64,000 nucleotides of DNA from Candidatus Multivoradales bacterium (GTDB lineage Bacteria > Acidobacteriota > Thermoanaerobaculia > Multivoradales > JAHEKO01), in NCBI GenBank assembly GCA_965223155.1, contig CBDCVR010000013.1:192001-256000 (forward strand), given 5' to 3'. Positions 1-15,452 of this stretch are shown here, one piece after another. A program made the translations under genes and the position numbers. Under the pieces are notes generated by a model. That model did not search any database. It was not told the origin of the DNA and saw only the letters and a list, made by a program, of their open reading frames with translations. How positions within the stretch are numbered: the stretch's first letter is position 1; each line of letters starts with the position of its first letter.

Positions 1-2124
1 GTCTCGGACGGCAGCGGGAGCACTGGCTCAGCGACCAGGCTCGCCTCCCGGCGCACCTACGGTCTGGGCTTGGATGAGATCGTCCGCCAGGAGACCGATG
101 TCGACGGCGACGGCACCCTCGAGACGGTGACCGTGCCGGTCTACGACTCGACCGGCAACCTGGTGCTTGCGACCGGCCCGGACGGGCGCACCCTCGAGCG
201 CTACGAGTACACCCCGTACGGCGGCCGGACGACCTTCACCGACTTGACCGGTCCGCGCCTCGAACAGCTCCGCGCGGTCGAGGGCCCTGGCGGGAGCACA
301 GGCGGCGGCGAGCTCTGGCTCGAGCTCTCGGAGGCGGCGTTACCGGTTCCACTCGAAGCGGCCGCAACCGCGGATACACTTACCGTCAGCGTGGATGGAG
401 CAGTCGAGACCCTGACGGTGAGCCAGCCGGTCCTGACCGGCCGGGAGGCCCGGCGCCGCGTGGTGCTGGCGCTCGGCACGACCCCGGCGGCCGGTGCCGC
501 CGTCGAGCTGACGATCCCGGGCTCCGCCCTGGTGGACGAGTCCGGCAACGAGGCGAGCGCCGACATCACCCAGAGCTTCACCTGGCCGGGAGCCGGTTCC
601 GGTAGCTCGGGTAGCTCTGGCTCCGTCGTCTTCGACGACACCGACCCGCGCGTGGGCCTCGTCTCGACCTACCGGGACGGCAACCCGGTCCTGACCGTCC
701 AGCTCTCCGAAGAGGCGGACCTGGCTGCTGCGGCCACCGCCATCACCCTCGACGGCGCTCCGACCTCCTGGACCCTCGAGCCCGACCGCTACACCCTGAG
801 CAGCACAGCCAGCCTCCCGGCCGGCACCCACACCCTGGCAGTCTCGACCACCCCCCTCGACCTCGCCGGCCGCGGCCTCACCGAGCCCTTGGAGCTGACC
901 TTCTCCGTGACCGCGAATCCGTCCGGCGCCGGCTGCGCCCCAGGCACCCTCTGCGGCTCCGCCAACACACCCTTCCTCTACGAAGGCCCCAAGGCGAACC
1001 AGGTCACGACCTCGACGGTAGGGAACGCCCACGGCTTCCACGGCCGGCCCGTCGATCCTGAGACGGGGTTGGTCTTCGTTCGGAATCGTTTCTATGACCC
1101 GGAGATGGGGCGGTTTATTTCGGACGACCCGCACCTCTACAGCGACGGACCGAACACCGGGCAGTTTGCGCTCAACAGCCCCTTCGTCCTGGGCGACTCG
1201 ATGGGGACGGCAGTCCACGGGTATGCGACGGCGCGGCTAACCCGAGGTCAGGCCCATGCCGGTTACGTGCACTTCGATCCGGTGAACCCGACGACGTTCG
1301 TGCCCCAGGACTCGGCTTCCCGGGGGTACGCTCCGTTTCGGTCGATGATGGCAGGCGTGATGGCAGGCAAGAGCCGTCTGGTGACGTTTGTCCATGGCTA
1401 CAACGTCGAGGAAGGTGGGCAGAAGGGATTCCGGGACGCCTTGACCCATCTCGACGACGGGTTTTCCGGGGCGGGAGTCCCACAGGACCTCTACGGTTTT
1501 ACCTGGAAGGGAGATCCGCTCGGGCGTCCGGCTTCGATGCCGTTCTTCTGGTGGTCGGAAGGCAACGCCGATCTCGCGGGCTATGCCTTCGGCCGCTACT
1601 TGATGCACACGCGCCAGGCTGCGGGCGCGGGACCGGACCTCTTTGCGATCACGCACAGCCTGGGGGCGCGAGTCGCGCTTCGCGGGTTGCAATTTCTCTC
1701 GACGCTGCGTAAGGGTGCGGACAATGCGGGCTCCCACCAGAACCTGGATGGATTGTTCATGCTGAATGCCGCAGTGACGAGGGGCTCGATCCTTCCAGGA
1801 GGCTTCTTGGAGAGCGCACTGGGGAACGTGAATGCGGTCGGCAACTTCCACAGCAAGAAGGACCCGGTGCTGGCCAGGGCCTTCCGGATCGCCAAGTTGG
1901 GGCGCAGGGCGCTGGGATCGGGCGCGATTAGGGAGGTTTTGCTGCGCGGCGGGGTTACGAACCTCAGAGACTTCGACATGCTGGACCCGAATGTCGCGGG
2001 TTCGCCTGTCATGACTCACGGGGATCATCTCCACCCTGGGCTGTGGGCAGCTGCGGGGGTGAATCACGATCAGCTATTTCGGACGCTGGAGGTGCGAATG
2101 GGTAAGGCATCGAGGAACCAGTGA
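1..2124 (+). CDS. Rhs/YD-repeat polymorphic toxin, 3' part (5'-truncated by window edge); Rhs core split by Ig-like domains; C-terminal alpha/beta-hydrolase domain
   Basis: Frame is open from base 1 (VSDGSGSTGSATRLASRRTYGLGLDE...). Rhs core motifs ERYEYTPYG and GFHGRPVDPETGLVFVRNRFYDPEMGRFISDDP...NSPFVLGDSMG. C-terminal domain has FVHGYN, THSLG, SKKDPVL and a distal His. Confidence 0.9.
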   Translation, partial: VSDGSGSTGSATRLASRRTYGLGLDEIVRQETDVDGDGTLETVTVPVYDSTGNLVLATGPDGRTLERYEYTPYGGRTTFTDLTGPRLEQLRAVEGPGGSTGGGELWLELSEAALPVPLEAAATADTLTVSVDGAVETLTVSQPVLTGREARRRVVLALGTTPAAGAAVELTIPGSALVDESGNEASADITQSFTWPGAGSGSSGSSGSVVFDDTDPRVGLVSTYRDGNPVLTVQLSEEADLAAAATAITLDGAPTSWTLEPDRYTLSSTASLPAGTHTLAVSTTPLDLAGRGLTEPLELTFSVTANPSGAGCAPGTLCGSANTPFLYEGPKANQVTTSTVGNAHGFHGRPVDPETGLVFVRNRFYDPEMGRFISDDPHLYSDGPNTGQFALNSPFVLGDSMGTAVHGYATARLTRGQAHAGYVHFDPVNPTTFVPQDSASRGYAPFRSMMAGVMAGKSRLVTFVHGYNVEEGGQKGFRDALTHLDDGFSGAGVPQDLYGFTWKGDPLGRPASMPFFWWSEGNADLAGYAFGRYLMHTRQAAGAGPDLFAITHSLGARVALRGLQFLSTLRKGADNAGSHQNLDGLFMLNAAVTRGSILPGGFLESALGNVNAVGNFHSKKDPVLARAFRIAKLGRRALGSGAIREVLLRGGVTNLRDFDMLDPNVAGSPVMTHGDHLHPGLWAAAGVNHDQLFRTLEVRMGKASRNQ
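38..657 (+). repeat. Copy 1 of a ~600 bp diverged direct repeat (rhs core/Ig region); copy 2 at ~6577-7174
   Basis: Long identical runs, e.g. gtgaccgtgccggtctacgactcgaccggcaacctggtgcttgcgaccgg; differences are mostly third-position changes and short Gly/Ser indels. Confidence 0.9.
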
Positions 2125-3287
2125 CACAGAAGTTTCTGCTGTCGGCGACGACGCTGCTGTGGATCAGCTGTTCCACGATGGCGATGGGCTCCGATCCGTA
2201 CGGCCCGAAAGCGGTGAACTACCTGGATATCTCGGCGGACGGGAAGTATCTGGGGGGCGTGCGCCAAGACGGTTTCGCGTTCGTGATCGACTTAGAGAGT
2301 CGCAAGCGGGTGAGCAATCTTTCGCGCGGGAAGTTCCCGGGGCTCCCTGGGGGGCCGCGCGTCCAGTTTCTGGCGTTCCGGGGCTCCCGTGGGGAGGTCG
2401 TCTGGGATTGCCGTTCGGGGAGTGTTTGCGTGACGGACCTGGCGACGGGTGAGCGGGAGTTTCTGTTCGAGCACGACCCGCAAGACAACGTGATGGTGGG
2501 AGCGGTGTCGCGGGACGGAGAACGGATGGCGTTCGGTACGCGGGGGGAAAGAGTGTTTTCCTACGACGCGCGTACCGGCGAACAGGTGACGCTCAAGCCA
2601 AAGAACATCTGGGACCGGGTGGGGTTTCCGATGTACACACTGGAAGCGCCGCCGACGCTGGACTTCCTGATCACGGCCTCAGCGGAGGTCGGCGCAGAGG
2701 CTCTCTACGAGAAGAGGGAATCGACGCGGCGTCACGACGAGGAGCGATACCTGGAAGTGCGGCACCACGATGGGAGCTATCGACTTGAGCCGATGCATCG
2801 GGGGATCAACCTGTGGACCTGGGGGGACGACTGGCCAGAGATGATCGACGACGACTTCTCGGACAAGATTCGGGCGGACTGGTCCCGGGACGGACGGTTG
2901 GTGGCGATTAACCAACAGGGAGGTAGCTCCTACTTCGTATACGAGGTTGGCGAAGATGGGGTGCGATGGGTTACCGATCTTTCGAAGGCTGGCGCTCGTG
3001 GTTGTGATGGTATGCGGTTCCTGGATGTTGAGGGGCGGTACCTAGGCGTAGTTAGCTACGGCCACCGATTCATGGAGGTTATTGATCGAGCCACTGTCGA
3101 TGTGAACCAGTACGCTCAGGGGACGGATCTGAAGCTTCGTGAAAAGCCCGCCGGCGGCCGCCGGATGATGGTCGCTTACCCGGAGAAGGGCTGGGTCTTC
3201 CTCGGGCTTCGAAACGGTGGGATCGACTGGTACCAGTTCCAGTCGGAACCCAAGCTCTCGCTTCGGCACATCGCGACTCTCCGGTAA
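2121..3287 (+). CDS. Secreted WD40/beta-propeller-like protein, candidate cognate immunity protein
   Basis: GTGA overlap with the toxin stop; N-terminal signal peptide with Cys17; repeated blade motifs ISADGKYL, VSRDGERM, WSRDGRLV. Confidence 0.75.
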   Translation: MTQKFLLSATTLLWISCSTMAMGSDPYGPKAVNYLDISADGKYLGGVRQDGFAFVIDLESRKRVSNLSRGKFPGLPGGPRVQFLAFRGSRGEVVWDCRSGSVCVTDLATGEREFLFEHDPQDNVMVGAVSRDGERMAFGTRGERVFSYDARTGEQVTLKPKNIWDRVGFPMYTLEAPPTLDFLITASAEVGAEALYEKRESTRRHDEERYLEVRHHDGSYRLEPMHRGINLWTWGDDWPEMIDDDFSDKIRADWSRDGRLVAINQQGGSSYFVYEVGEDGVRWVTDLSKAGARGCDGMRFLDVEGRYLGVVSYGHRFMEVIDRATVDVNQYAQGTDLKLREKPAGGRRMMVAYPEKGWVFLGLRNGGIDWYQFQSEPKLSLRHIATLR

Positions 3288-3443
3288 CACGGCTCGAGCC
3301 TCAGCCCGGCCCGGCACAGGCGTCTCAAGGAAGTCATCGAAGAGCGGTCCGAGCCCAAGAAGCGGTCCTCATCCATGGGAGTTCGAGAGCCTAGGTGTAG
3401 ATGTGGACTCTGACGCAGTGGCCTGAAAAATGGACACTATCTA

Positions 3444-3959
3444 ATGAGCCAAGAGTCGTTCGAGAAAAAGGGTCGCAAGGGAGAAGAGGCCCTCAACCGG
3501 TGGCTTAGCCGGCAGGGGATGAGTTACGTTGCGGTTTGTCAGGCTTCTGAGACCTTCTCTCCCTTGTTTGGCACTGATCTCAAGAGGCCAGACTTCCTGG
3601 TGTTGCTGGACTCGATCGGCCTGATTGCCGTAGATGCAAAGTTCCACGAACCTTGGAATGGAACCTACTCGCTGGGCTATGAGGACGAGATCCAGAGGGT
3701 GGTCACTTTCGAGCGGCTTTTCCGGTTGCCCTTTTGGTATGCCTATATGAGTAGCGAAGAGGGTCGCCTTTGGTATTGGGTCAGTGCCTTGAAGGCACTG
3801 GAGGTCGGCAAGAAGAAGAAGCGCAAGAAGGACGGCAAGGAGTTCTTGTCCATAGATCTGGACCACTTCTTGCGGATTGAAGATCGCTTTGATTTTGGCA
3901 AACTCTATACGCAGAAGATGAACAGCCTACGGCGGCTGCGGAATGCTCCTGCGGACTAG
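3444..3959 (+). CDS. PD-(D/E)XK-family nuclease-like protein
   Basis: GRKGEE helix, RPDFLV, AVDAK motifs; basic KKKKRKK patch; visibly less GC-rich than core genes. Confidence 0.65.
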   Translation: MSQESFEKKGRKGEEALNRWLSRQGMSYVAVCQASETFSPLFGTDLKRPDFLVLLDSIGLIAVDAKFHEPWNGTYSLGYEDEIQRVVTFERLFRLPFWYAYMSSEEGRLWYWVSALKALEVGKKKKRKKDGKEFLSIDLDHFLRIEDRFDFGKLYTQKMNSLRRLRNAPAD

Positions 3960-6900
3960 TTGTTCTCCTCTGATGGCAGTGGGTCAGGCTCCGAGTACGC
4001 CTACAACGACTACGGCCAGGTGACGCGGGCCACGAACCCGAACGGCAATGTGACCGAGTACTCGTACTTTGCGAGCGGTCCGAGCCTTGGCTACCTCCAG
4101 GAGACGGTTGCGGCACCGGGCGTGCTGGATCTAGCCACCCGGTACACGACCGACGCCCGGGGCAACGTCACGGCGGTGACGGATCCGCGGGGAGTACGAC
4201 ACACGACGGTCTACAACGAGCTCGACTGGCGGGTGGCCTCGACCCAGGCGGCGTCGGGGGCGTCGTCCACGCCGGCCCTGGGCTATACCTCGAGCTACCT
4301 CTACGACGCCAACGGCAATCTCGTAACCGAGCGGCAGCCGTTCGGGGAGACGGGCTCGGCGGCGACCGAGACCCGGTACACCTACGGTGCCTTGAGCGAG
4401 CTGGTGACGACGACGCGGGAGATCGAAGCGGGCGGCGCCGTCACCGTCGAGAGGCGGGCCTACGACCCCAACTACAACCTGGAGTCGGTGATCCACCCGG
4501 AGGGGAACGAGACCCGCAACGTCTACGGTCCGCGCAACCTCCTCCTCTCGACGACGCGAGGCTTCGGCTCGCCGGAGGCGGTCGTTGACTCCTATGTCTA
4601 CAACGCCGACCGCGAGCGGACGGCCTACACCAACGGGCGCTTGCAGAGCTTTGCGACCGAGTACGACGGCTACGGGCGGGTGGCTCGGGTGGTGGACCCC
4701 CTGGGCAATGCGACGGTGTCGAAGTACGACGCCAACGGCAACGTGGTCGAGTCCGAGCACTACGACCCGGCGGGGACGCTCCTGGCGGAGTCGGCCGGCG
4801 AGTACGACCTTCTGAACCGGAAGACGGCGAGCCTCGAGGCCCTCTTCGACGCCGGGGATCCTACGACCGAAGGGATCCTGCGCTCTGCGACCGTCTACGA
4901 TGCGGCCTCGAACGTCCTCCAGACGACCGACGCCTTGGGTCGGACGACGGTGTCGCGCTACGACTCAGCCGAGCGCCTGGTCGAGACCATCGACCCGGCC
5001 GGCAACCGGCTGGTGCGCACCCTCGACGCCAACGGCAACGCCACCTTGACGGAGTCGGTCGAGACGACCCCGGACGGCGGCACGGTGACGGTTCCGTACC
5101 AGACGGCCTACGATGCCTTGAACCGGCCGGTCTCGCGCACCGACGCTTTGGGGAACATGACCCGGACGGCCTACGACGCGCGCTCGAACGCGATCCGGCA
5201 AACGGACGCCGAAGGGCACGTGACGGCGTCGTTCTACGACGGTCTCGACCGGCGGATCCGGGCGGTGCGTCCGGAGGGGATCTCGATCGAGTCCGCCTTT
5301 GACGGCAACTCCCGGCTGACCCGGTACCGGGACGCTCGGGGCAACGAGACGAGCTGGACCTACGATGCCCTGGACCGGAAGGCGACGACGACCTATCCGG
5401 ACCAGACGTCCGAGAGCTACGCCTACGACGGCGCCGGCAACGTGACCCAGGTTGCCGACGCCAACGGCTCGACCGTGACCCAGACCTACGACGCGGCGAA
5501 CCGGCTGACGGCACGCTCGGTGGCGGCGGGTCCGGGCATCGAAGGCATCACGACCGAGACCTACGGCTACGACGGCCTGTCCCGGGTGGTGACGTCCGAG
5601 TCCCCGGCGGCGGTGACGAGCTTTGCCTACGACTCGCTGTCGCGGATGACCTCGGAATCGCGTGCGGTCGGCGGCGGCTCCGGCTCGACCGCTAAGATCG
5701 TCTCCTACGCCCACGACCGGGTGGGCTCGGTGACCCGTGCCACCTACCCGTCGGGGCACGAGGCGGCCCGGACGTTCGATCCGCTGGATCGGCCGCTGGG
5801 GGTCCAGGCGGGAACGGCTGGAGCGGGGAGCCAGGCCGTCTCCTACGGCTACAGGGGCCCGGACCTGGTCCAGACCAAGGCCCTGGGCAACGGCGTTGCG
5901 GGCGAGATGGCCTTCGACGGGGCGAAGCGAGTGGTGGGCACCTCGTACAGCCGGCCTGGCTCCAGTGGTTCGAGTGGCTCCAGCGGCGGCTCCGGTACGG
6001 CCTTCTCGGAGACGATCGCCTGGAGCCCGCGGCATCTCAAGGTCGAGACCACCCGGGCGGACCTGGGCGGGCGCGGGCTCCTGCTGGCCTACGACGGGGC
6101 GGGCCGAGTGACCGCGGCAGACAGCGTGCCCTCGCCCCAGACGGCCAACAACACGACCCCTGCCGGAGGGACGGGGTCCTCTGGAGGCGACGGCTTTGCC
6201 TTCGCCTACGACGCGGCCGAGAACCTCCTGTCCCGCTCGCGCTCGACCGGCCTCGGCACCGAGACCTCGGCCCTGCCGCTCGACGGCTCGGGCCGGAACC
6301 GCCCCGGTGAGGCGGACGGCCAGTCCCTGACCTACGACGCCAACGGGAACCTCGTCCAGAAGGGCAACCAGCGCTTTCACTACGACTACCGGAACCGCAT
6401 CGCCCGGGTGAGCGACGCGACCACCGGCGCCACGGTCGCCACCTACCTCTACGACAACTTCAACCGGCGTCTGGCGAAGACCGTCGAGACGGCGGAGGGC
6501 CCCAAGACCACCGAGACCGTCTGGGGCGGCTGGCAGAACCTGGAAGAGTATGTCTCTGCCGCGGGTGGAGGCCAGCGGCTTGCCTCCCGGCGCACCTACG
6601 GGATGGGCCTCGACGAGATTGTCCGCCAGGAGACGGACGTCGACGGCGACGGCACCCTCGAGACCGTGACCGTGCCGGTCTACGACTCGACCGGCAACCT
6701 GGTGCTTGCGACCGGGCCGGACGGCCGCACCCTGGAGCGCTACGAGTACACCCCGTACGGCGGCCGCACGATCTTTACCGACTTGACCGGTCCGCGCCTC
6801 GAACAGCTCCGCGCGGTTGGGAGCACAGGCGGCGGCGAGCTCTGGCTCGAGCTCTCCGAGGCGGCGTTACCGGTTCCACTCGAAGCGGCCGCAACCGCGG

Positions 6901-7202
6901 GTACACTTGCCGTCAGCGTGGACGGTACCGTCGAGACCCTGACCGTGAGCCAGCCGGTCCTGACCGGCCGGGAGGCGCGAAGACGCGTGGTGCTGGCGCT
7001 CGAGACGACCCCGGTTGCCGGTGCTGCCATCGAGGTGACGATCCCGGCCGAAGCCCTGGTGGATGAGTCCGGCAACGAGGCCACTACCGACATCACCCAG
7101 AGCTTCACCTGGCCGGGAGCCGGCGCTGGTAGCGCGACCTCGGTCATCCTCGATGACACCGACCCACGCGTGGGTGTCCCGTCCGCAGTGTCCGCGCGGT
7201 AG
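3960..7202 (+). pseudogene. Second Rhs/YD-repeat gene fragment, lacking N-terminus and C-terminal toxin domain
   Basis: 1080-codon YD-repeat ORF begins mid-repeat directly after the previous stop with no RBS. Homology to copy 1 ends at DDTDPRVG (7174), followed by unrelated sequence and a stop. Confidence 0.8.
6577..7174 (+). repeat. Copy 2 of the rhs core/Ig direct repeat
   Basis: Aligns by eye with 38-657; ends abruptly at gtggg|tgtcccgtcc. Confidence 0.9.
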
Positions 7203-8345
7203 TAGTTGACGTTCTTGGAGTCATTTTGTGGCCGGGCGGGCATTGGTCTCCGCTCCTGCCACGAGATGTGCCTCGATTTCCTAGATTTCTTTCTTCCTAG
7301 AGCCCCGCTCGTTCCCGGCCGAGACGCCTGAACGCGCTTCGCCCCCGGACGTTCGTCTCTGTTGCGGAAGCTCCGCATGGATTTGGCCGCCGCCCCCTCG
7401 CCCCGTCACTCCAGCCATCGGTAGCCGACGAGCACGCCGTGCCAGGTGGAGTAGAGGCGCGGCCTTGGTACCGGCTTGCGGACAACCCGCCAGGCCATGG
7501 CGGGTGTCAGGCCGTCGAGGTGCTGATGCGGGCGCAGGTGGTTGTACCAGGCGGTGAAGGTGTGGAGATCGGTGTCATCGGGCACAAACTGAGGCGCTGA
7601 TTCGCGGACCGCCCGGATCGCTTGCTTGAAGGTGAGAAAGAAGCGCTCGACCCTGCCGTTTTGCCAGGGGGCGTAGGGCGCAGTCCGCTGATGGCGGATG
7701 CCGAGAAGGAAGAGGCCGAGTCGAAAGGTCTTCGATGTGAAGACGGGTTCGTTGTCGGTGCGAAGACACTTGGGCCGCCCGTAGCGCTCGACTAGGTGGA
7801 GAAGGGCTCGTAACAGCGCGAGTGCCGTTCGCTCTCGAACTGCCGCGAGCATGAGACAGGCTCGCGTGCCGTGATCGAGAACGCCTAGGGCGCGCTTACC
7901 GTTCTCCGACCCGTTGGCGAGGTGGGTCAAATCGAGTCCCCAGGTGTGGTTTTGAGGGATCGGTCTCGGACGGCGGTGCTTGAGCCACTTCCGCTTCCGT
8001 ACGATCTCGAGCTGGCTTGCGCGCACGACGCCGGCGACGTAGGTCTTGCCGACAGTCATTGATCGGCTCGCGGCGTGGAGGTGATTGAAGGTGATGGCGA
8101 TCTTCCGGCAGCCGTTTTGGGGCATGAGAGCCTTCAGGCGGACGACCTCTCTGCGGACCCAGAGCGGCTTGGGTTGGCGAAGGACGCTTCGGTTTGCCCT
8201 GCCTCCCGGGGCCTTGCCTCGACGACGACGCCCGAGCCTGCCGCGTTGCAACGAGATCCAGCACCACCAACGCAGGAAGACAACCAGGCCGAGGGCGACG
8301 GCGACTCCCGCCGCCTGAGAGAAGCTCATGGTTGCGGAGTCTAGC
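7175..8345 (-). mobile_element. Putative insertion sequence (DDE/rve transposase, IS481/IS3-like); high-coordinate boundary uncertain
   Basis: Starts with TGT exactly at the rhs breakpoint (7175 TGTCCCGTCCGCAG) and contains a transposase; no clean matching inverted repeat or target duplication found. Confidence 0.55.
7406..8329 (-). CDS. Integrase-core (rve) DDE transposase
   Basis: HTH-like WVRREVVRLKALMPQNGCRKIA; catalytic WGLDLT, RTDNE, WQNGRVERFF; WYNHLRPHQHLDGLTP. ATG 8329 chosen because TAGACT lies 8 nt upstream. Confidence 0.85.
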   Translation of the reverse strand: MSFSQAAGVAVALGLVVFLRWWCWISLQRGRLGRRRRGKAPGGRANRSVLRQPKPLWVRREVVRLKALMPQNGCRKIAITFNHLHAASRSMTVGKTYVAGVVRASQLEIVRKRKWLKHRRPRPIPQNHTWGLDLTHLANGSENGKRALGVLDHGTRACLMLAAVRERTALALLRALLHLVERYGRPKCLRTDNEPVFTSKTFRLGLFLLGIRHQRTAPYAPWQNGRVERFFLTFKQAIRAVRESAPQFVPDDTDLHTFTAWYNHLRPHQHLDGLTPAMAWRVVRKPVPRPRLYSTWHGVLVGYRWLE

Positions 8346-8352
8346 TCGGTAG

Positions 8353-9200
8353 AATTGTGAGGCGGATCGAAGTGTTTGCCTCGTTGCCCAAGATCGGCTA
8401 CCGGTACGAGGAGCGAGCTGGCCACGAGGTTCGGATCTTGCTCTATGGGCACCACGCATCGCGTACTTGCTAACTGCGGAACGAGAGACTCGCCTTCTTG
8501 GGATCTTCTACGGGGCACTCGAGCTCGAGCTTTCTCTCTACCCTTGGCCGTCCGGTAGAATCAGCGTGGCGAATGTGGCCGTCGGCCTGGAGGGGTGCGG
8601 TGCTGACTTTCCGGCTGATCTCTAGGTCGGTTCGGGTGTGTCGTACGAATCGGGAATCCCGACGCTGTGTGATGTGCATGAAGCGTTCGGGGTCGACGAT
8701 GCACAAGGTGAAGGCTTCCCGATGGGATCTGACGACCCGCTCCCGGCCCGGCTGGCCGCGGATCCACTTGGGACATTTATGCGTTTCTCGGAGGTCCAGG
8801 TTCGCGCCATCGTGGCGGATCCAACTCCAACTCTCGAGATGATCGCAAGGCTTCACCGCGAGGGGCGGGTAGGTCGGAGTTTCACCGACAACGCTAACAA
8901 CCTCATCGCCAAGGTCGGCGTACCCTTCGAGCGCACGCGTGGCTCAGGCGTATTCAATGAACGCCATCCGGTGACGTTCTCCTCGCGCAATCTGATTGTC
9001 GTTGGCGTGGCGGCAGATCGTCGCGAGGTCGTTCGGCAGGCACGCCGTCGGCGCATGAGAGTGATTGTCGTCAACCCGTGCGCCACGGTCTCGCCGAATG
9101 TTCAACATCTGGACTTCCTCCGGCCCGACGATCGTTTCTACAGGCGACAGCGAACACCTATTTCGAAGCGGTCGGCTCAGAGCTCGGCTTGTCCGCCTGA
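8353..9200 (+). pseudogene. Decayed Sir2/sirtuin-like NAD-binding protein gene
   Basis: FPADL*VGSGVSYESGIP (GxGxSxxxGIP, in-frame TAG at 8623), TDNANNL, LIVVGV, VIVVNP; probable frameshift near 9146 restoring TANTYFEAVGSELGLSA* (TGA 9198-9200). 5' limit uncertain. Confidence 0.6.
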
Positions 9201-9323
9201 GAGATGGCCCAGGCTGGGTGGAGAGGTCAGCTTCGGTAGGACCCGAGCCTACCCGCGAGAGCGGGCCTTGCCACCGGTCGGTCAGGTGTGGCGGTCCGAG
9301 GGTTCGCGGCTCATAGTCGGGCG

Positions 9324-10706
9324 ATGCCGACGATCATCGAGCCGTTTCGGATCAAGTGCGTCGAGCCGATCACGCTGACGACCCGGGAGGAGCGCGAGGA
9401 GCTGCTGAAGAAGGCCGGCTACAACCTGTTTCGCCTGCCGGCTTCGGGAATTCTGATCGACCTTCTGACCGACAGCGGTACGGGCGCCATGAGTGCCGCG
9501 CAGTGGTCGGCCATGATGCGCGGCGACGAGTCGTATGCGGGGAGCGACAGCTTCGACCGGTTCGAGGCGGCGGTTCGGGACATCTTCGGCTTCGAGTACG
9601 TCATCCCGACCCATCAGGGCCGCGCTGCCGAGCGCATCCTGGCGGCTACGCTGTGCCGGCCGGGAGACGTGGTTCCCAACAACACCCATTTCGACACGAC
9701 CCGGGCGAATATCGAGGCCGCGGGTGCCGTGGCGCTGGATCTGCCCTGCGTAGAATCTCGGGACCTGGGCCGCGAGTATCCGTTCAAGGGCAACATCGAC
9801 CTCGAGGCCCTGGCTAAGGCGCTCGACGAGCACGCCGGCTCGGTGCCATTCGCGATGGTCACGGTCACCAACAACGGTGGTGGGGGACAGCCGGTGTCGA
9901 TGGCGAATCTCCGAGCCGCATCGGAGCTCTGCCGCAGGCGCGGCGTGCCGTTCTTCCTGGACGCGTGCCGCTTCGCCGAGAACGCCTATCTGATTCAACG
10001 GCGGGAGCCAGAGTACGCGGGGAGCTCGCTTCTCGAGATCGCGCGCGAGATGTTCTCGTGCGCCGACGGCTGCACCATGAGCGCCAAGAAGGACGGCATG
10101 GCCAACATCGGGGGCTTTCTGTGCACCAATGATGCTCAGGTAGCGGGCCAGGAGAAGGAACTCTTGATCCTGACCGAGGGTTTCCCGACCTATGGCGGCC
10201 TGGCGGGCCGGGATCTCGAGGCGGTCGCGGTGGGACTCTACGAGGCGCTGGACCCCGAGTATCAGAAGTATCGGCACGCCTCGATCCGCTACTTGGGCGA
10301 CCACATCGCGGCGGCTGGCGTTCCGATCGTCCAGCCGCCGGGCGGCCACGCGATCTATATCGACGCGGCCCGAGCCTTGCCACATCTGGAGCGCTCGGAG
10401 TTTCCCGGGCAGGCCCTCGCGATCGCGCTCTATCTCGAAGGGGGTATTCGGTCGGTGGAAATCGGCTCGGTCATGCTCGGCCGGCGCGATCCCGAGACCG
10501 GCGCCGAGCAGCCCGCCGAGCAGGAGTTGCTCCGTCTGGCGATTCCGCGGCGGGTCTACACCAAAAGCCAGACCGACTACGTGATCGAGACGATCCTGGC
10601 GGCGCTCGAAGCTCCGGAGACGATTCCGGGCGTGCGGATCGTCGAGCAGCCGGCGGCGCTCCGGCATTTCTCGGCGGCGTTCGCGCCGAACGTCGGAGCG
10701 GCCTAG
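9324..10706 (+). CDS. tnaA: Tryptophanase (PLP beta-eliminating lyase)
   Basis: EPFRIKCVEPI, IDLLTDSGT, MSAKKD (PLP Lys); Trpase-type HFDTT, RSVEIG and LRHF rather than tyrosine phenol-lyase residues. Confidence 0.9.
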   Translation: MPTIIEPFRIKCVEPITLTTREEREELLKKAGYNLFRLPASGILIDLLTDSGTGAMSAAQWSAMMRGDESYAGSDSFDRFEAAVRDIFGFEYVIPTHQGRAAERILAATLCRPGDVVPNNTHFDTTRANIEAAGAVALDLPCVESRDLGREYPFKGNIDLEALAKALDEHAGSVPFAMVTVTNNGGGGQPVSMANLRAASELCRRRGVPFFLDACRFAENAYLIQRREPEYAGSSLLEIAREMFSCADGCTMSAKKDGMANIGGFLCTNDAQVAGQEKELLILTEGFPTYGGLAGRDLEAVAVGLYEALDPEYQKYRHASIRYLGDHIAAAGVPIVQPPGGHAIYIDAARALPHLERSEFPGQALAIALYLEGGIRSVEIGSVMLGRRDPETGAEQPAEQELLRLAIPRRVYTKSQTDYVIETILAALEAPETIPGVRIVEQPAALRHFSAAFAPNVGAA

Positions 10707-10746
10707 GGCCTCGGCCGGACGCCGGCCCTGTCCCGCGTTCGCCCGG

Positions 10747-11571
10747 TCAGCCGAGGGCGACGTCGAGGATCATCATGACCACGAATCCGGCCACTAGGCC
10801 GAGGGTGGCGGCGTCGGCGTTGCCGGAGCTTTGGGCCTCGGGGACGACCTCCTCGACCACCACGAAGATCATGGCGCCGGCGGCGAAGGCGAGTGCGTAG
10901 GGCAGGATTGGCTGCCAGAGCGTGACCGCGGCGGCGCCGAGCACTCCGGCGACGGGTTCGACCGCGCCCGAGAGCTGACCGTAGAAGAAGCTCTTGGAGC
11001 GCGAGAAGCCTTCGCGGCGCAGCGGCATCGACACCGCCAGCCCTTCGGGGAAGTTTTGGATGCCGATGCCCAGGGCCAGGACCGTGGCGCCGGCCACCGT
11101 GGCCGAGTCAAGGCCATGGGCGGCGGCTCCGAAGGCGACGCCGACCGCGAGACCCTCGGGGATGTTGTGGAGGGTGATGGCCAGGACCAGTAGGGTCGTG
11201 CGCTCCAGATTCGTCGGGATGCCCTCGGCTGACTCGATCGGGGCCTTGAGATGGACGTGCGGGGTTACGAGATCGGCCAGGCGCAAGAAGAGAGCGCCGA
11301 GGCTGAAGCCCACGGCGGCTGGAAACCAGGTGGGTACCGCGAGCCCCGCCGACATCTCGATGGCCGGTGCCAGGAGAGACCAAAAGCTGGCGGCGATCAT
11401 CACTCCGCCGGTAAAGCCGAGCATGACGTCGAGCACCTTGCGGTTCTCTTGGCGGAGGAACCAGACCAAGGAGGCTCCGGCGGCGGTCAGCCCCCAAGTG
11501 AAGAGCGTTCCGACGAGCGCTTGGTGAACGGGCCCGAGCTCGAGGAAGCGCGACCAAAGCGAATCCACCAT
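10747..11571 (-). CDS. ZIP-family divalent metal transporter (ZupT/GufA)
   Basis: AITLHNIPEGLAVG, GIGIQNFPEG, multiple transmembrane helices. Confidence 0.92.
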   Translation of the reverse strand: MVDSLWSRFLELGPVHQALVGTLFTWGLTAAGASLVWFLRQENRKVLDVMLGFTGGVMIAASFWSLLAPAIEMSAGLAVPTWFPAAVGFSLGALFLRLADLVTPHVHLKAPIESAEGIPTNLERTTLLVLAITLHNIPEGLAVGVAFGAAAHGLDSATVAGATVLALGIGIQNFPEGLAVSMPLRREGFSRSKSFFYGQLSGAVEPVAGVLGAAAVTLWQPILPYALAFAAGAMIFVVVEEVVPEAQSSGNADAATLGLVAGFVVMMILDVALG

Positions 11572-11717
11572 CAACTCAGTCTACGAGCGTGGGCGGCGCG
11601 GCACAATCCGGGACGGCGGCCGGACCGGCGAGTCCGTCTGGCCGAGAGCAGCGAGTTGAAGGCGCGATGGGGGAGAGCGTCTCGTGCGCGCGCTTGGCGT
11701 TGAGCGCGAAGCCCGAA

Positions 11718-13028
11718 TCAGCCGGCCGGCATCGTGACGACGACTTCGTTGCCGAAGTTCGAGCGCTTGCCGGAAGCAACGGCTCGAATGCGGAACGCAT
11801 ACGTGACGCCGGGCTTGAGGCCGGTTACGACGAGGCGTTTGACGTTGGCCGAGGGTGAGGCGATGCGGCGGAAGCGCTTGGAGCCGCGCTTCATCTGAAC
11901 CTCGAAGCCGGTTTCGTTCTTGGAGCGGTCGCGCCAGCGCAGGCGAATCCGGGTTGGGCTCAAGACGCGGACTCGCAGCCGGCCAGGAGCCTTGATCGAC
12001 GGGCCGTCGTCGCCGCCGCCGTCGCCACCGCTGCCACCGGGGAGATCCGCGATTTGCACGAGAGTGGTGCCTTCGCCGCTGGCCGCGACGCGCGAGCCTC
12101 CAAGGATGTAGAACTTGCCGCGGAAGAGGACATGGCCGACGCCATGAAGAGCTTCCGGTGCGGGTTCGAGCAAGGTCCAGGCGTCGGCGGCCGGGTCGTA
12201 GCTCTGCAGTACGTTCGACACCGCGCCGCCACCGATGTCTTCGCCGCCGTAGGCGTAGATCTTTCCGTCGTGCACGCCAACCGCGTGGCCCGACGCGGGG
12301 GATTCCATCCGTGCGCCCTGCGTCCAGGTGTCGGAGACCGGGTCGTAGATCTGAGTGTCGTTGCGGTTGGCGAGGTTGTTGCGGCCGCCGACGACGTAGA
12401 TCTTGCCGCCCAGGACGCCGCCGAAGACATGCTCGCTGGCCCTGGGCAAGGGGGCCAGCTCCTCCCAGGAATCGGTGGCGGGATCGTAGACCTCGTGGGC
12501 GGTGACGGCGCCGCCCGTGATGATGCTCCGGGAGCCGCCGATGGCGTGGATCTTGCCGTTCCGAACCACGGTTGCCATGGCGGTTCGCGCGGTGGGCATC
12601 GCTGCGCCCTCGGACCAAGTTTCGGTCGCGGGGTCAAAGATCTGGAGTGTCGAGCTCGCGAGCCCGGTACCGGCCACCACGTAGAGCTTGCCCTGGACGG
12701 CGACGACGCCGGCATGATGGGTGCCGGTCGGGAGGTCGGGCCCCACGCTCCAGCGGCCGGCCGCGGGATCGAAGATCAGGAGAGCGTGCTCATTCTCTTC
12801 CAGGAAGCCGCCCGCCGCGTAGATCTTGCCGCCGATGACGGCGGCTCCGAACTCGGAGTTCGCGATCGGCATCTCCGGTCCGAACGACCAGGTCACCGGC
12901 TGAGCCGCCGTAGGTCCAGGAGCGACGAGGAGGAAGAGGAAGAGTCCCGTCAGAAGGCCGATGAGGTGTTTGGCGATACGGGTGGTTGGAAGGCGCATGA
13001 CGTCTGGGTGGCGCAAGTGCAGTGCCAT
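11718..13028 (-). CDS. Secreted Kelch-repeat beta-propeller with C-terminal fibronectin type III domain
   Basis: Signal peptide; about six GKIY..GG....YDP....W repeats; WRDRSKNETGF...GLKPGVTYAFRIRA FN3. Alternative start 12998. Confidence 0.85.
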   Translation of the reverse strand: MALHLRHPDVMRLPTTRIAKHLIGLLTGLFLFLLVAPGPTAAQPVTWSFGPEMPIANSEFGAAVIGGKIYAAGGFLEENEHALLIFDPAAGRWSVGPDLPTGTHHAGVVAVQGKLYVVAGTGLASSTLQIFDPATETWSEGAAMPTARTAMATVVRNGKIHAIGGSRSIITGGAVTAHEVYDPATDSWEELAPLPRASEHVFGGVLGGKIYVVGGRNNLANRNDTQIYDPVSDTWTQGARMESPASGHAVGVHDGKIYAYGGEDIGGGAVSNVLQSYDPAADAWTLLEPAPEALHGVGHVLFRGKFYILGGSRVAASGEGTTLVQIADLPGGSGGDGGGDDGPSIKAPGRLRVRVLSPTRIRLRWRDRSKNETGFEVQMKRGSKRFRRIASPSANVKRLVVTGLKPGVTYAFRIRAVASGKRSNFGNEVVVTMPAG

Positions 13029-13263: not shown

Positions 13264-14871
13264 CTAGGGACCCTGAAGGACCTTGAGCGGGCCGGACACA
13301 GCCGGCGGCGGCGAAGCCGCGACCGGCACCGAGGCGCCGGCTTCGCCCAGGCGCGGCTCCCAGAACTGCCCGGCCTCGTAGAGACACCGGATCTGGGCGT
13401 ACTGGAAAAGGGCCCGCATGACCGGCTCCTCGGACTCGGGCTTGTTCCGAACGGCCGCCCGGACCGTGTTCCACATGGCCTTTTCCTCGTCGCCGCGCTG
13501 CACCATGCGCATGACCACGGCCACGGCCTCGGCGTCCACGGGGCGCATCTGACGGCGGACGGCGCCGGCCTTGCCGGCCAGCGCGCCGCGGCGCGGGCCG
13601 AGCGCTTCGATCATGTTGAGGACTCGCTGGGTGAAGTTCTCGGGCGAGTAGAGCTGGTTGCCCAGCCACTTGAGGCCGTCGAAGAGTTGCTCGCGGCTCA
13701 TCTGGTTGGGGATGACGTTGGTATCCCAGGGAGAGCCCGCGGTCTCCGAGCCCTCGACCAGGCGGCCGCCGGTCTCCATGCGTTCGTGAAGTGGCGTGGC
13801 CTCGGGAGCCACCAGCGCTCCGACGGTGAAGGTCGGCACCGGTGCCGCCATGGCGAAGTCGAATTGGGTCTGGAAGATGTCGAGGCCGTCCGAGTCGAAG
13901 CCGACGATCATGCCGCCCTGAACGGCGACTCCGTGGTCCAGGAAGACCTCGATCTGCTCGTGCAGGTCGAGCTTCAGGTTCTGCCGCTTCTTGGTCTCCT
14001 TGAGAGCCTCGGGATTGGGTGTTTCGATGCCGATGAAGACGTTGAGGAGGCCGGCGCGCGCCAGCAGGTCCATCAGCTCGGGATCCCGGGCAGCGTCGAT
14101 GGATACCTGGGTGCTGAAGGACATCGGGCCCTCGGGACGGTTCAGGTTCCACTCGGCGACGGCCGCCAGGATCTCTTTGGCCCGCTTGCGATAGACGGTC
14201 AGATTGTCATCGGCTAGGAAGACCTCGCGATAGCCGATGTCGTAGAGGACGTCGAGCTCGGCCAGGATCTGATCCACCGGCTTGTGCCGCTGCTTGCGGC
14301 CCAGATACTGGATGACGTCGCAGAACTCGCACTCGAAAGGACAGCCGCGCGAGGTCTGGACGCAGCCGCTCAGGGCCCGGTCGTTGGGGTAGAGGTCCCA
14401 GCGCGGCAGGGGCGAGGTGGAGAGCTCGGGCTGGGTGCCGGTGTACTCCTCCTGCCAGTCGCCGCGTTCGAGGTCGGCGAAGAAGTCCGCGGCGATGCCC
14501 TCGAACTCGCCCACCACCAGAATGTCGCAATGCCCGCGCATTCGGCCCGGTGAGAGTGACGCGTAGGGCCCGCCGATGATGACGGTCTTGCCCCGGTTAC
14601 GGAACTCCGCCGCGAGCTCCAGCATCCGGGTGCCCTGAGTGATCTTGCCCGTGATGCCGATGAAGTCGGCGTCGGTGTCCAGATCGACCGGCTGGATGTA
14701 CTCGTCGCAGAGCTCGACCCGCCAGTCCTCAGGGGCGAAGGCGGCGATCGTCGTGACCGCCAGGTCGGCGATCGAATGCGCCGGTTCGAGCCCGAAGTGC
14801 TGAAACGCCTCGGCGCCGAAATAGCTTGGATAGAGCGATCGTGGATTGATGAGATACAGGCTTTTCGCCAT
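13264..14871 (-). CDS. B12-binding radical SAM protein (HpnP/DUF4070-like)
   Basis: GGPYASL B12-binding region; QTSRGCPFECEFC; DDNL; FIGIETP; GGMIVGFD. Confidence 0.88.
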   Translation of the reverse strand: MAKSLYLINPRSLYPSYFGAEAFQHFGLEPAHSIADLAVTTIAAFAPEDWRVELCDEYIQPVDLDTDADFIGITGKITQGTRMLELAAEFRNRGKTVIIGGPYASLSPGRMRGHCDILVVGEFEGIAADFFADLERGDWQEEYTGTQPELSTSPLPRWDLYPNDRALSGCVQTSRGCPFECEFCDVIQYLGRKQRHKPVDQILAELDVLYDIGYREVFLADDNLTVYRKRAKEILAAVAEWNLNRPEGPMSFSTQVSIDAARDPELMDLLARAGLLNVFIGIETPNPEALKETKKRQNLKLDLHEQIEVFLDHGVAVQGGMIVGFDSDGLDIFQTQFDFAMAAPVPTFTVGALVAPEATPLHERMETGGRLVEGSETAGSPWDTNVIPNQMSREQLFDGLKWLGNQLYSPENFTQRVLNMIEALGPRRGALAGKAGAVRRQMRPVDAEAVAVVMRMVQRGDEEKAMWNTVRAAVRNKPESEEPVMRALFQYAQIRCLYEAGQFWEPRLGEAGASVPVAASPPPAVSGPLKVLQGP

Positions 14872-14948
14872 GGGCTCTCCCGGCTGCCCTCGAGTGACGT
14901 TGAAGCTCGGATGCTGGTCCGATGAAGTCTACTACGAGGGCGTTTCGG

Positions 14949-15452
14949 TCACTGGGAGCGGTAATTGGTGAACTGCATGTCGATGCCCAAGTCGCGCTCC
15001 TTGAGCAGAGCGATGACCTGTTGCAGGGTGTCCCGGTCCTTGCCCGAGACCCGCACCAGATCGCCCTGGATCGAGGTCTGAACCTTGAGCTTCTCGTTCT
15101 TGATGATCTTGACGATCTCCTTGGCCTTCTCGGTCGGGATGCCCTGCTGGAGTGTTACTTCCTGCCGGACCGTGCCCTTTGCGGCCGGCTCGATCACGCC
15201 GTAGGCGAGCGCCTTCAGGGACACGCCCCGGCGCACCAACTTCTGTTGCAGAATTTGATTGACCGCCCCGAGCTTGTACTCGTCCGCCGAGCTCAGGGTC
15301 AGCCGATGCTCCTTGTCGTGGAATTCGATGCCGGAGCCCGTGCCTTTGAGATCGAATCGTTGCAGGATCTCCTTCATTGCTTGATTGACGGAGTTGGCGA
15401 CCTCGGCCAGGTCCACGTTGGAGGCGATGTCGAAAGAATTTTGCTTGGCCAT
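14949..15452 (-). CDS. yajQ: YajQ-family nucleotide/c-di-GMP-binding protein
   Basis: SFDIASNVD, QRFDLKGT, IQGDLVRVSGKDRDTLQ, QFTNYR. Confidence 0.93.
   Translation of the reverse strand: MAKQNSFDIASNVDLAEVANSVNQAMKEILQRFDLKGTGSGIEFHDKEHRLTLSSADEYKLGAVNQILQQKLVRRGVSLKALAYGVIEPAAKGTVRQEVTLQQGIPTEKAKEIVKIIKNEKLKVQTSIQGDLVRVSGKDRDTLQQVIALLKERDLGIDMQFTNYRSQ

Follow-up and report, generated by a model that had tools for sequence, protein, structure and literature searches.

A predicted pair of immunoglobulin-like domains within the C-terminal plug of a giant Rhs/YD-repeat toxin family, mostly from Acidobacteriota

The end of an rhs gene and the insert before its core

The stretch of DNA analysed here (the window) is 64,000 nucleotides (nt) long, comes from a Candidatus Multivoradales bacterium (positions 192,001 to 256,000 of contig CBDCVR010000013.1) and has a G+C content of 66.7%. 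At its left edge lies an rhs gene, copy 1 (1..2124, + strand), whose open reading frame (ORF) is open at the window's 5' end, has a G+C content at third codon positions (GC3) of 0.83 and encodes the C-terminal 707 amino acids (aa) of its product. The whole protein is a giant polymorphic toxin of the Rhs/YD-repeat kind, of which this ORF covers the C-terminal tip, and the host is probably a Thermoanaerobaculia-like acidobacterium. Reading along the + strand, the last YD repeats of the cocoon (1..222) end in the hairpin ERYEYTPYG (nt 196-222, aa 66-74). Two predicted immunoglobulin (Ig)-like domains follow, domain 1 (Ig1) at 238..588 (aa ~80-196) and its homologue domain 2 (Ig2) at 628..918 (aa ~210-306), and between them runs a Gly/Ser-rich linker, GAGSGSSGSSGS (589..627); domain 1 and this linker were also delimited on an alignment of the family. 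A second linker (919..1008), which holds a C-x5-C loop (CAPGTLC, nt 934-954), leads to the Rhs-associated core, or aspartyl autoprotease segment (1009..1206, aa 337-402). The ORF closes with a C-terminal toxin domain (1207..2121), probably an alpha/beta hydrolase of the DUF900 type (lipase/esterase-like).

Sequence comparison shows that the 260-266 aa between the YD repeats and the core are a true insertion into the C-terminal plug, that is, into the Rhs-associated core. In copy 1, 266 aa separate G74 from G341, and the match to TIGR03696 (NCBIfam), which begins at aa 337, follows 260 aa after the last YD hairpin ends. The core is recognizable by the landmarks GNAHGFHGR (aa 341-349, nt 1021-1047), DPETGL (nt 1054-1071) and RNRFYDPEMGRFISDDP (nt 1081-1131). 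For comparison, a shell search (40 matches) was run with the 301 shell residues found just before the insert in a second, truncated copy of the gene, and the stored proteins were scanned with three hidden Markov models (HMMs) from the family alignment, one each for the last YD repeats, the insert and the core. The 21 proteins newly stored and scanned include 12 with a strong match to the last YD repeats and a match to the core, and all 12 carry the insert between the two. The most distant shell-search matches having both flanks (P0167-P0171) are without it: in all five, only 7-18 aa separate the YD and core flanks. In one of these, P0168, the junction reads SYEYSAFGE, ten residues and then QPYSYTGREYDEETGL, and TIGR03696 aligns contiguously over profile positions 1-76 across the insertion point. 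In the window the same profile scores 50 bits (cutoff 32.5) over aa 337-402, which correspond to positions 10-75 of 76 only. Because P0168 is contiguous over the whole profile, the window insert sits between approximately positions 9 and 10. Nine distinct PDB sequences (Rhs, Tse5, Tse15, RHS2/TcC-type and SGS4 proteins) match copy 1 aa 1-420, each with its best stretch within aa 337-403. According to PMC8636562, the C-terminal plug of Photorhabdus Rhs1 comprises residues 1263-1357 and is cleaved after L1342; by these limits the insertion point therefore falls inside the plug, ~65 residues before the cleavage site.

An earlier note on this DNA, made from its letters and ORFs, had proposed that the two halves of the core are split by an insertion of ~255 aa. 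The split stands, with its landmarks in place and the 260-266 aa measured here set against 7-18 aa in the insert-less relatives; the length was slightly low. Two further expectations, that core HMMs would fragment on such a protein or miss it and that TIGR03696 would return a split pair of matches, were not borne out. There is one match, lacking the first nine profile positions; the profile also matches 56 of 60 relatives, and NCBI already names the relatives 'RHS repeat-associated core domain-containing protein'. The note had also pointed to the C-x5-C loop beside the two units. As a family signature the loop was rejected, being confined to close relatives, with 5 of 64 aligned rows in all (the window, P0002, P0003, P0006 and P0007).

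Fold, family and conservation of the insert

The two units of the insert are homologous to each other: a profile of aa 80-196 aligned with a profile of aa 206-306 in hhalign at a probability of 97% (E 9.1e-11, 86 columns). The insert contains LSE motifs at nt 325-333 and 703-711. Window aa 1-420 were modelled with AlphaFold2 on an alignment of 106 rows, with a mean predicted local distance difference test score (pLDDT) of 85.9 and a predicted template modelling score (pTM) of 0.82. In this model each unit is all-beta apart from a single short helix, and averages over blocks of 10 residues give a pLDDT of 93-98 (93-98 in domain 1, 95-98 in domain 2). The inter-domain linker, ~8 aa longer in the window than in most relatives, falls to 71-88, and the linker from Ig2 to the core lies at 73-91. 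The last YD repeats are modelled as beta-hairpins, and RHS_repeat matches them below threshold (Pfam, aa 48-74, 15.5 bits). Compared with the PDB by Foldseek, the window model gave 33 matches at E<=1e-3, the best of which are tandem Ig-like domains, with LdtMt2 of M. tuberculosis, which has two bacterial Ig-like domains, at the top (E 3.4e-5) and titin Z1Z2 and IgG Fc after it. The TM-scores are low (0.16-0.20), because the query extends into the YD repeats and the core and because the angles between the domains are not the same. Moreover, of 60 relatives scanned, 33 match Big_5 (PF13205) at E<=0.01, the best of them at 1.5e-8, and the neighbours of the insert in the ESM Atlas are Big_5/SbsA-Ig clusters at 0.87, a lead only. 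As modelled, the insert is a pair of Ig-like beta-sandwiches of the Big_5 kind, which agrees with the note's reading of two units of one pattern resembling SbsA/Big_5 Ig folds.

The family is visible only by exhaustive search of representative sequences. A word-index search with the insert alone gave just 3 matches in 8000 scored candidates; the exhaustive search with the insert alone gave 208 representative clusters (50% identity) at E<=1e-3, 135 at E<=1e-10 and 7 at E<=1e-30, with proteins of up to 5118 aa. The family alignment holds the window and 63 rows chosen, among the 150 matches listed, for having most of the insert; the others are mostly short fragments. One order is conserved throughout this alignment: ERYxYxPYG, Ig1, Ig2, a short linker and the core. 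Ig1 is marked by the motifs TPPxVEQVR, LWxExSEE, QPVxxGRxAxRRLV and ALxDxFxN...FxWP, Ig2 by DxxAPxV, LExxFSEExDL, DG..WTL, DRYTL, GxHTL and DLxG, and the core by the consensus GNxFGFHGxxxDxETGLxYxRNRYYDPExGRF...DPxGL.

The insert is present in 162 of the 171 stored proteins (P0001 left out). Ninety-four of these 162 read YD-insert-core, 45 have the core only, 11 the YD repeats only and 12 neither. The incomplete proteins are mostly fragments that start or stop within the insert; P0062, P0099 and P0148 are among the exceptions, having sequence past the insert in which the core was nevertheless undetected. The 45 core-only proteins (P0014, P0020, P0029, P0039, P0049, P0058, P0063 and others) run from insert to core to toxin without YD repeats before, and in most the protein itself starts only a few residues away from where its insert match does. 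They could result from contig breaks at repeated sequence, or be orphan toxin cassettes with a homology arm that starts in the insert. With 208 clusters at E<=1e-3 and 94 proteins in the YD-Ig-Ig-core order, the insert is, as the note had supposed, a property of a whole Rhs subfamily, and defines a clade.

A genome scan found 15 loci, of which 10 are titled as metagenome-assembled genomes (MAGs) of Thermoanaerobaculia or Thermoanaerobaculaceae and 3 as 'uncultured Acidobacteriota'; the remaining ones are a 'Deltaproteobacteria bacterium' (L004) and a Dehalococcoidia genome (L010). This survey of taxonomic range, which the note had proposed, places 13 of 15 loci in Acidobacteriota MAGs, mostly Thermoanaerobaculia, the range being a lower bound. 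The hosts are apparently soil and sediment Acidobacteriota. The genes are very large: 12 of the 15 locus ORFs run off the 5' end, and 11 of these already have 1931-4006 aa in view. One protein of 3625 aa (L011) carries CarboxypepD_reg, Big_5 and LVIVD domains, then DUF6531 at residue 1662, RHS repeats and PT-TG, and the N-terminus of the L014 protein has CarboxypepD_reg, Big_5 and LVIVD as well. The N-terminal Big_5 domains of the giant relatives score 74-104 bits. The giant gene of L014 is broken into two frames that overlap (1..6525 and 6113..11956), owing to a frameshift or to faulty assembly. Downstream at the same locus, an ORF at 14015-15082 has a sub-threshold match to Phage_sheath_1 (27.8 bits, cutoff 31.4), which might hint at a contractile system near this rhs gene.

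Conservation differs sharply along the protein. Over 62 rows (the window's near-duplicates P0002 and P0003 left out), mean pairwise identity is 0.53 in the last YD repeats, 0.42 in Ig1, 0.39 in Ig2 and 0.61 in the core, and 0.13 over the 18 residues after the cleavage site. Within the insert, G147, R153, D179, F181, N183, W195, W257 and D287 are each at least 90% conserved. Past the core, where identity falls to 0.13, the relatives carry at least seven toxin families: among 60 members, the toxin tips match DUF6765 in six and TreTu_C, EndoU, TseH, DUF900, Ntox10 and Lipase_3 in one each. Across the stored proteins, the tails after the core are 268 aa long in the median and 439 aa at most. The insert thus belongs to the conserved scaffold and not to the variable payload. 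With an identity of 0.39-0.42 it is about as conserved as the scaffold, which is not what a targeting module under rapid variation would show. On the same figures, set against 0.13 at the start of the toxin, the idea of a hypervariable targeting region was rejected.

Toxin tip, second copy and neighbouring genes

For the toxin tip of copy 1 (aa 404-707), sequence searches of Pfam and the PDB found no meaningful match; the sole PDB return is an antibody chain at E 0.66. A feature search of the ESM Atlas places the tip with DUF900 clusters at 0.93-0.90, a lead only, and its HGYN and THSLGA motifs presumably fit the DUF900 family. The start of the next ORF (2121..3287, + strand) overlaps the toxin stop codon. 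This ORF encodes a beta-propeller-like protein of 388 aa with WD40/beta-propeller-type matches only, which are weak (18 bits) and far below cutoffs, and is by its position a candidate immunity protein for the DUF900-like toxin.

The second rhs gene, copy 2 (3960..7202, + strand), is truncated. It holds a YD shell of ~946 aa (RHS_repeat 206 bits in 12 stretches, YD_repeat_2x 161 bits) and then Ig1 only (6762-7175). The note had reported an insertion at the same point in this copy, and the junction is indeed the same, with ERYEYTPYG at nt 6735-6761; the insert starts at 6762, not 6780, and comprises one domain of the two. DNA repeats join the copies at 38-293/6577-6832 (92%) and 292-591/6819-7118 (91%). 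The likeness to copy 1 ends after DDTDPRVG (nt 7175), where VPSAVSAR and a stop codon follow. Beyond it lies an rve-family transposase gene (rve, rve_3; 7406..8518, - strand), whose element apparently cut copy 2; no convincing pair of terminal inverted repeats was found there, and the ends of the element were not located. The toxin tip of P0003, an unrelated Lipase_3 domain, ends in the same eight residues, VPSAVSAR, which suggests that the same rve-type element inserted in two different rhs genes.

At the other end of copy 2 lies a 171-aa ORF (3444-3962) of lower G+C (0.53 and 0.37 at first and second codon positions) with a weak HYExAFE-family match (21 bits, cutoff 60). Its stop codon, TAG at 3957-3959, is in frame with the TTG at 3960 that opens copy 2, and abuts it. 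P0002 opens with MFSSDGSGSG as does copy 2, so that the junction recurs; it may be a recombination boundary rather than a true N-terminus. The remainder of the window consists of housekeeping genes (the nusA-infB-rbfA-truB-pnp region, metG, rpsA and others). A gene at 11718-13028 (- strand), which adjoins a radical-SAM/DUF4070 gene, encodes a 436-aa protein with Kelch repeats and fn3 that is unrelated to the Rhs insert.

Cocoon, plug and the position of the Ig pair

The copy 1 shell inside the window amounts to 74 aa only. The model of the L014 protein, 1200 aa long and built on a 58-row alignment, includes ~870 aa of shell together with the insert and the core, and has a mean pLDDT of 92.7 (89-96 over the insert blocks) and a pTM of 0.86. 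It matches solved cocoons in Foldseek at E 1e-42 to 5e-48, most tightly Photorhabdus Rhs1 (7pq5; 936 columns, rmsd 4.2, TMq 0.60) and 8qja_D (945 columns). These 936-945 columns are about the length of the model minus its ~264-aa insert, by column totals only and without a residue-by-residue listing. In the model, then, the cocoon and plug are as in solved Rhs proteins despite the insert. The high pTM suggests, moreover, that the Ig pair has a definite position relative to the shell.

The closest known systems are the Rhs effectors of type VI secretion systems (T6SS), such as Photorhabdus Rhs1 (7pq5), Pseudomonas RhsA (7q97), Tse5 (8cp6), Tse15 (8uxt) and RhsP (8h8a). They have in common with the present family the YD cocoon, the core with its aspartyl-protease segment, the variable toxin after the core and a downstream gene; the L014 model matches their cocoons at Foldseek E 1e-42 to 1e-48, and their cores match window aa 337-402. 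They differ in that their core segment follows the last YD hairpin with nothing inserted, and their own Ig-like domain lies in the N-terminal plug (PMC8636562). The insert clade, in contrast, has N-termini with CarboxypepD_reg, Big_5 and LVIVD, and lengths of ~3600 to 5100 aa. Teneurins and bacterial teneurin-like proteins (6fb3, 9ifo) resemble the clade in their YD shell with Ig-like or fibronectin-type plug domains and in their N-terminal adhesion-type domains (BIG, CarboxypepD), and are reported in Acidobacteriota among other phyla (bioRxiv 10.1101/2025.11.11.687626); the L014 model matches teneurins at Foldseek E 1e-31 to 1e-37. Their Ig-like plug, however, is N-terminal and comes with an NHL propeller, whereas no NHL match was found in the L011 or L014 proteins, where DUF6531 precedes the shell. 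The teneurin plug is described as uncleaved (PMC8765631), and the insert clade keeps DPxGL in 58 of 62 rows.

Tc toxins (TcB-TcC; 4o9x, 6h6g, 4igl) likewise have a large cocoon and a toxin of ~30 kDa cut by the same core, and their shell has a folded domain inserted in it, a beta-propeller with a role at one pole (PMC8636562, PMC8765631). That propeller sits at the N-terminal (TcB) end and docks on TcA, whereas the Ig pair here lies within the C-terminal plug. As to the inserted domains themselves, Big_5 (PF13205) and SbsA-type Ig domains share the beta-sandwich fold and the Atlas neighbourhood, and the same family occurs in the N-termini of the giant relatives. In all solved Rhs, Tc and teneurin structures the plug that varies is the N-terminal one, and the C-terminal one stays the same (PMC8765631, PMC8636562). 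The published comparison draws on PMC11461821, PMC8765631, PMC8636562 and bioRxiv 10.1101/2025.11.11.687626. We found no published description of an Ig insert in an Rhs C-terminal plug, in a search outside which most subscription journals and supplements lay, and this agrees with the note's view of the architecture as undescribed. An Ig tandem in the C-terminal plug is in none of the solved Rhs structures; otherwise, this is a known family of Rhs/YD polymorphic toxins.

We think it probable, taken as a whole, that the plug of these proteins carries a conserved Ig tandem as a fixed external appendage, with the toxin enclosed and cleaved after the core. The Ig pair would stand outside the cocoon at its C-terminal pole, where it would bind a conserved partner or surface, or else buttress the plug, and the toxin (here DUF900-like) would lie in the cocoon until cut after the core. 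In addition, the ~1 kb of conserved insert and core would lengthen the homology for swaps of toxin cassettes between the main gene and truncated downstream copies. The outer position is favoured by volume, because the cavity should not hold the Ig pair plus a toxin of ~30 kDa. The three-turn Rhs1 cavity is given as ~28,000 A^3, with a 16-kDa toxin in it and a deeply embedded C-terminal plug (PMC8636562); three-turn cocoons are assigned ~15 kDa and four-turn Tc cocoons ~30 kDa (PMC8765631). Measured from DUF6531 to the last YD hairpin, the L014 shell has ~1330 aa and exceeds the Rhs1 shell (residues 272 to ~1277) by about a third. By the partial specific volume of proteins, two folded Ig domains (~25 kDa) roughly fill one cavity of 28,000 A^3. 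Furthermore, a loop rich in arginine is conserved and the insert as a whole is about as conserved as the scaffold, both of which speak for a constant partner, or for docking on the shell itself, and not for variable target recognition.

Other accounts have to be weighed against this one. The tandem could lie inside the cocoon, as an internal spacer or chaperone that keeps the toxin unfolded, or as the filling of a larger cavity. The L014 shell, longer than those of T6SS Rhs proteins, speaks for such a placement, but the Ig pair alone would occupy about the whole of a 28,000 A^3 cavity before toxins of median 268 aa are added, and the same proteins have related Big_5 domains in their N-terminal part as well, which is presumably extracellular; we judge an internal tandem unlikely. 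The pair might, alternatively, be a tolerated passenger without a binding role: a duplicated stalk Ig pair in a permissive loop, kept because its removal disturbs folding, with extra conserved DNA for recombination between toxin cassettes as its practical effect. Of 13 giant proteins checked, 11 do have domains like unit 2 in their N-terminal parts, at weak scores (6-29 bits); copies 1 and 2 are 91-92% identical in DNA across the insert; and the 45 proteins with insert and core but no YD repeats fit repeat-induced contig breaks or orphan cassettes. Yet the loop motif QPVxxGRxAxRR and the residues conserved at 90% or more are hard to square with mere tolerance, as are the retention of the insert at 39-42% identity clade-wide and the pTM of the L014 model. 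Loop motifs, retention and model confidence together suggest selection beyond tolerance, and a passenger is in our view rather unlikely. An artefact, whether assembly chimera, pseudogene or chance resemblance of motifs, would find encouragement in the cut of copy 2 by a mobile element and in the scrambled C-terminus of P0002. It is scarcely credible given the open frame of high GC3, the same order in 94 independent proteins and 15 genome loci, and confident fold models; with the 208 clusters and the conserved order of the alignment, this reading was refuted. The Ig-insert observation itself is solid.

Several points nonetheless weigh against the fixed external appendage. The outward placement of the Ig pair, which the note had supposed for its adhesion or targeting arms, is a volume argument, not a measurement, and the insert region of L014 is 42% identical to that of the window, in a model without the N-terminal third of the shell. 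Big_5 matches the window on unit 1 only (aa 119-194, 19.2-21.5 bits against a gathering cutoff of 23.6), where the note had expected two matches. The genome scan used two peptide patterns only, from a four-sequence alignment, so that the true taxonomic range may be wider. The 46 window ORFs scanned include no secretion components, and likewise no PAAR/prePAAR N-terminus, VgrG, Eag chaperone or T6SS genes, the copy 1 N-terminus and upstream region lying outside the window. No TcA-like gene was seen in the window, and no binding partner or receptor for the Ig pair was identified there. Finally, copy 1 has DSMGT at the cleavage motif (aa 399-403, nt 1195-1209), against DPxGL-like sequences in 58 of 62 rows, and its close relative P0002 is scrambled from this motif onward. 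The copy 1 core has aspartates at aa 376 (in DDP) and aa 399, which may be the catalytic pair, to judge by counting along the Tse15 alignment and by the title of entry 8uxt, 'D1369N, D1391N'. Copy 1 may cleave poorly or be decaying.

A bolder extension of the external appendage is that the Ig pair is a handle, and that its binding to a conserved component of the target cell or of the producer's own surface machinery shifts the plug and opens the cocoon at the C-terminal pole. We regard this as a long shot. If true, giant Rhs proteins displayed on the surface could release their toxins with no mechanical pull from a T6SS. Even in T6SS effectors the opening of the cocoon and the release of the toxin are under debate, and the RhsA and Tse15 papers propose different routes. 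For annotation the consequence is small, since standard HMMs name these proteins correctly and do not report the insert. For the biology of the family, a clade with a conserved, folded two-domain addition inside an otherwise constant plug is a natural experiment on the C-terminal pole of the cocoon, and the Ig insert is both a target for structural work and a marker of a lineage-specific toxin family in the little-studied Thermoanaerobaculia.

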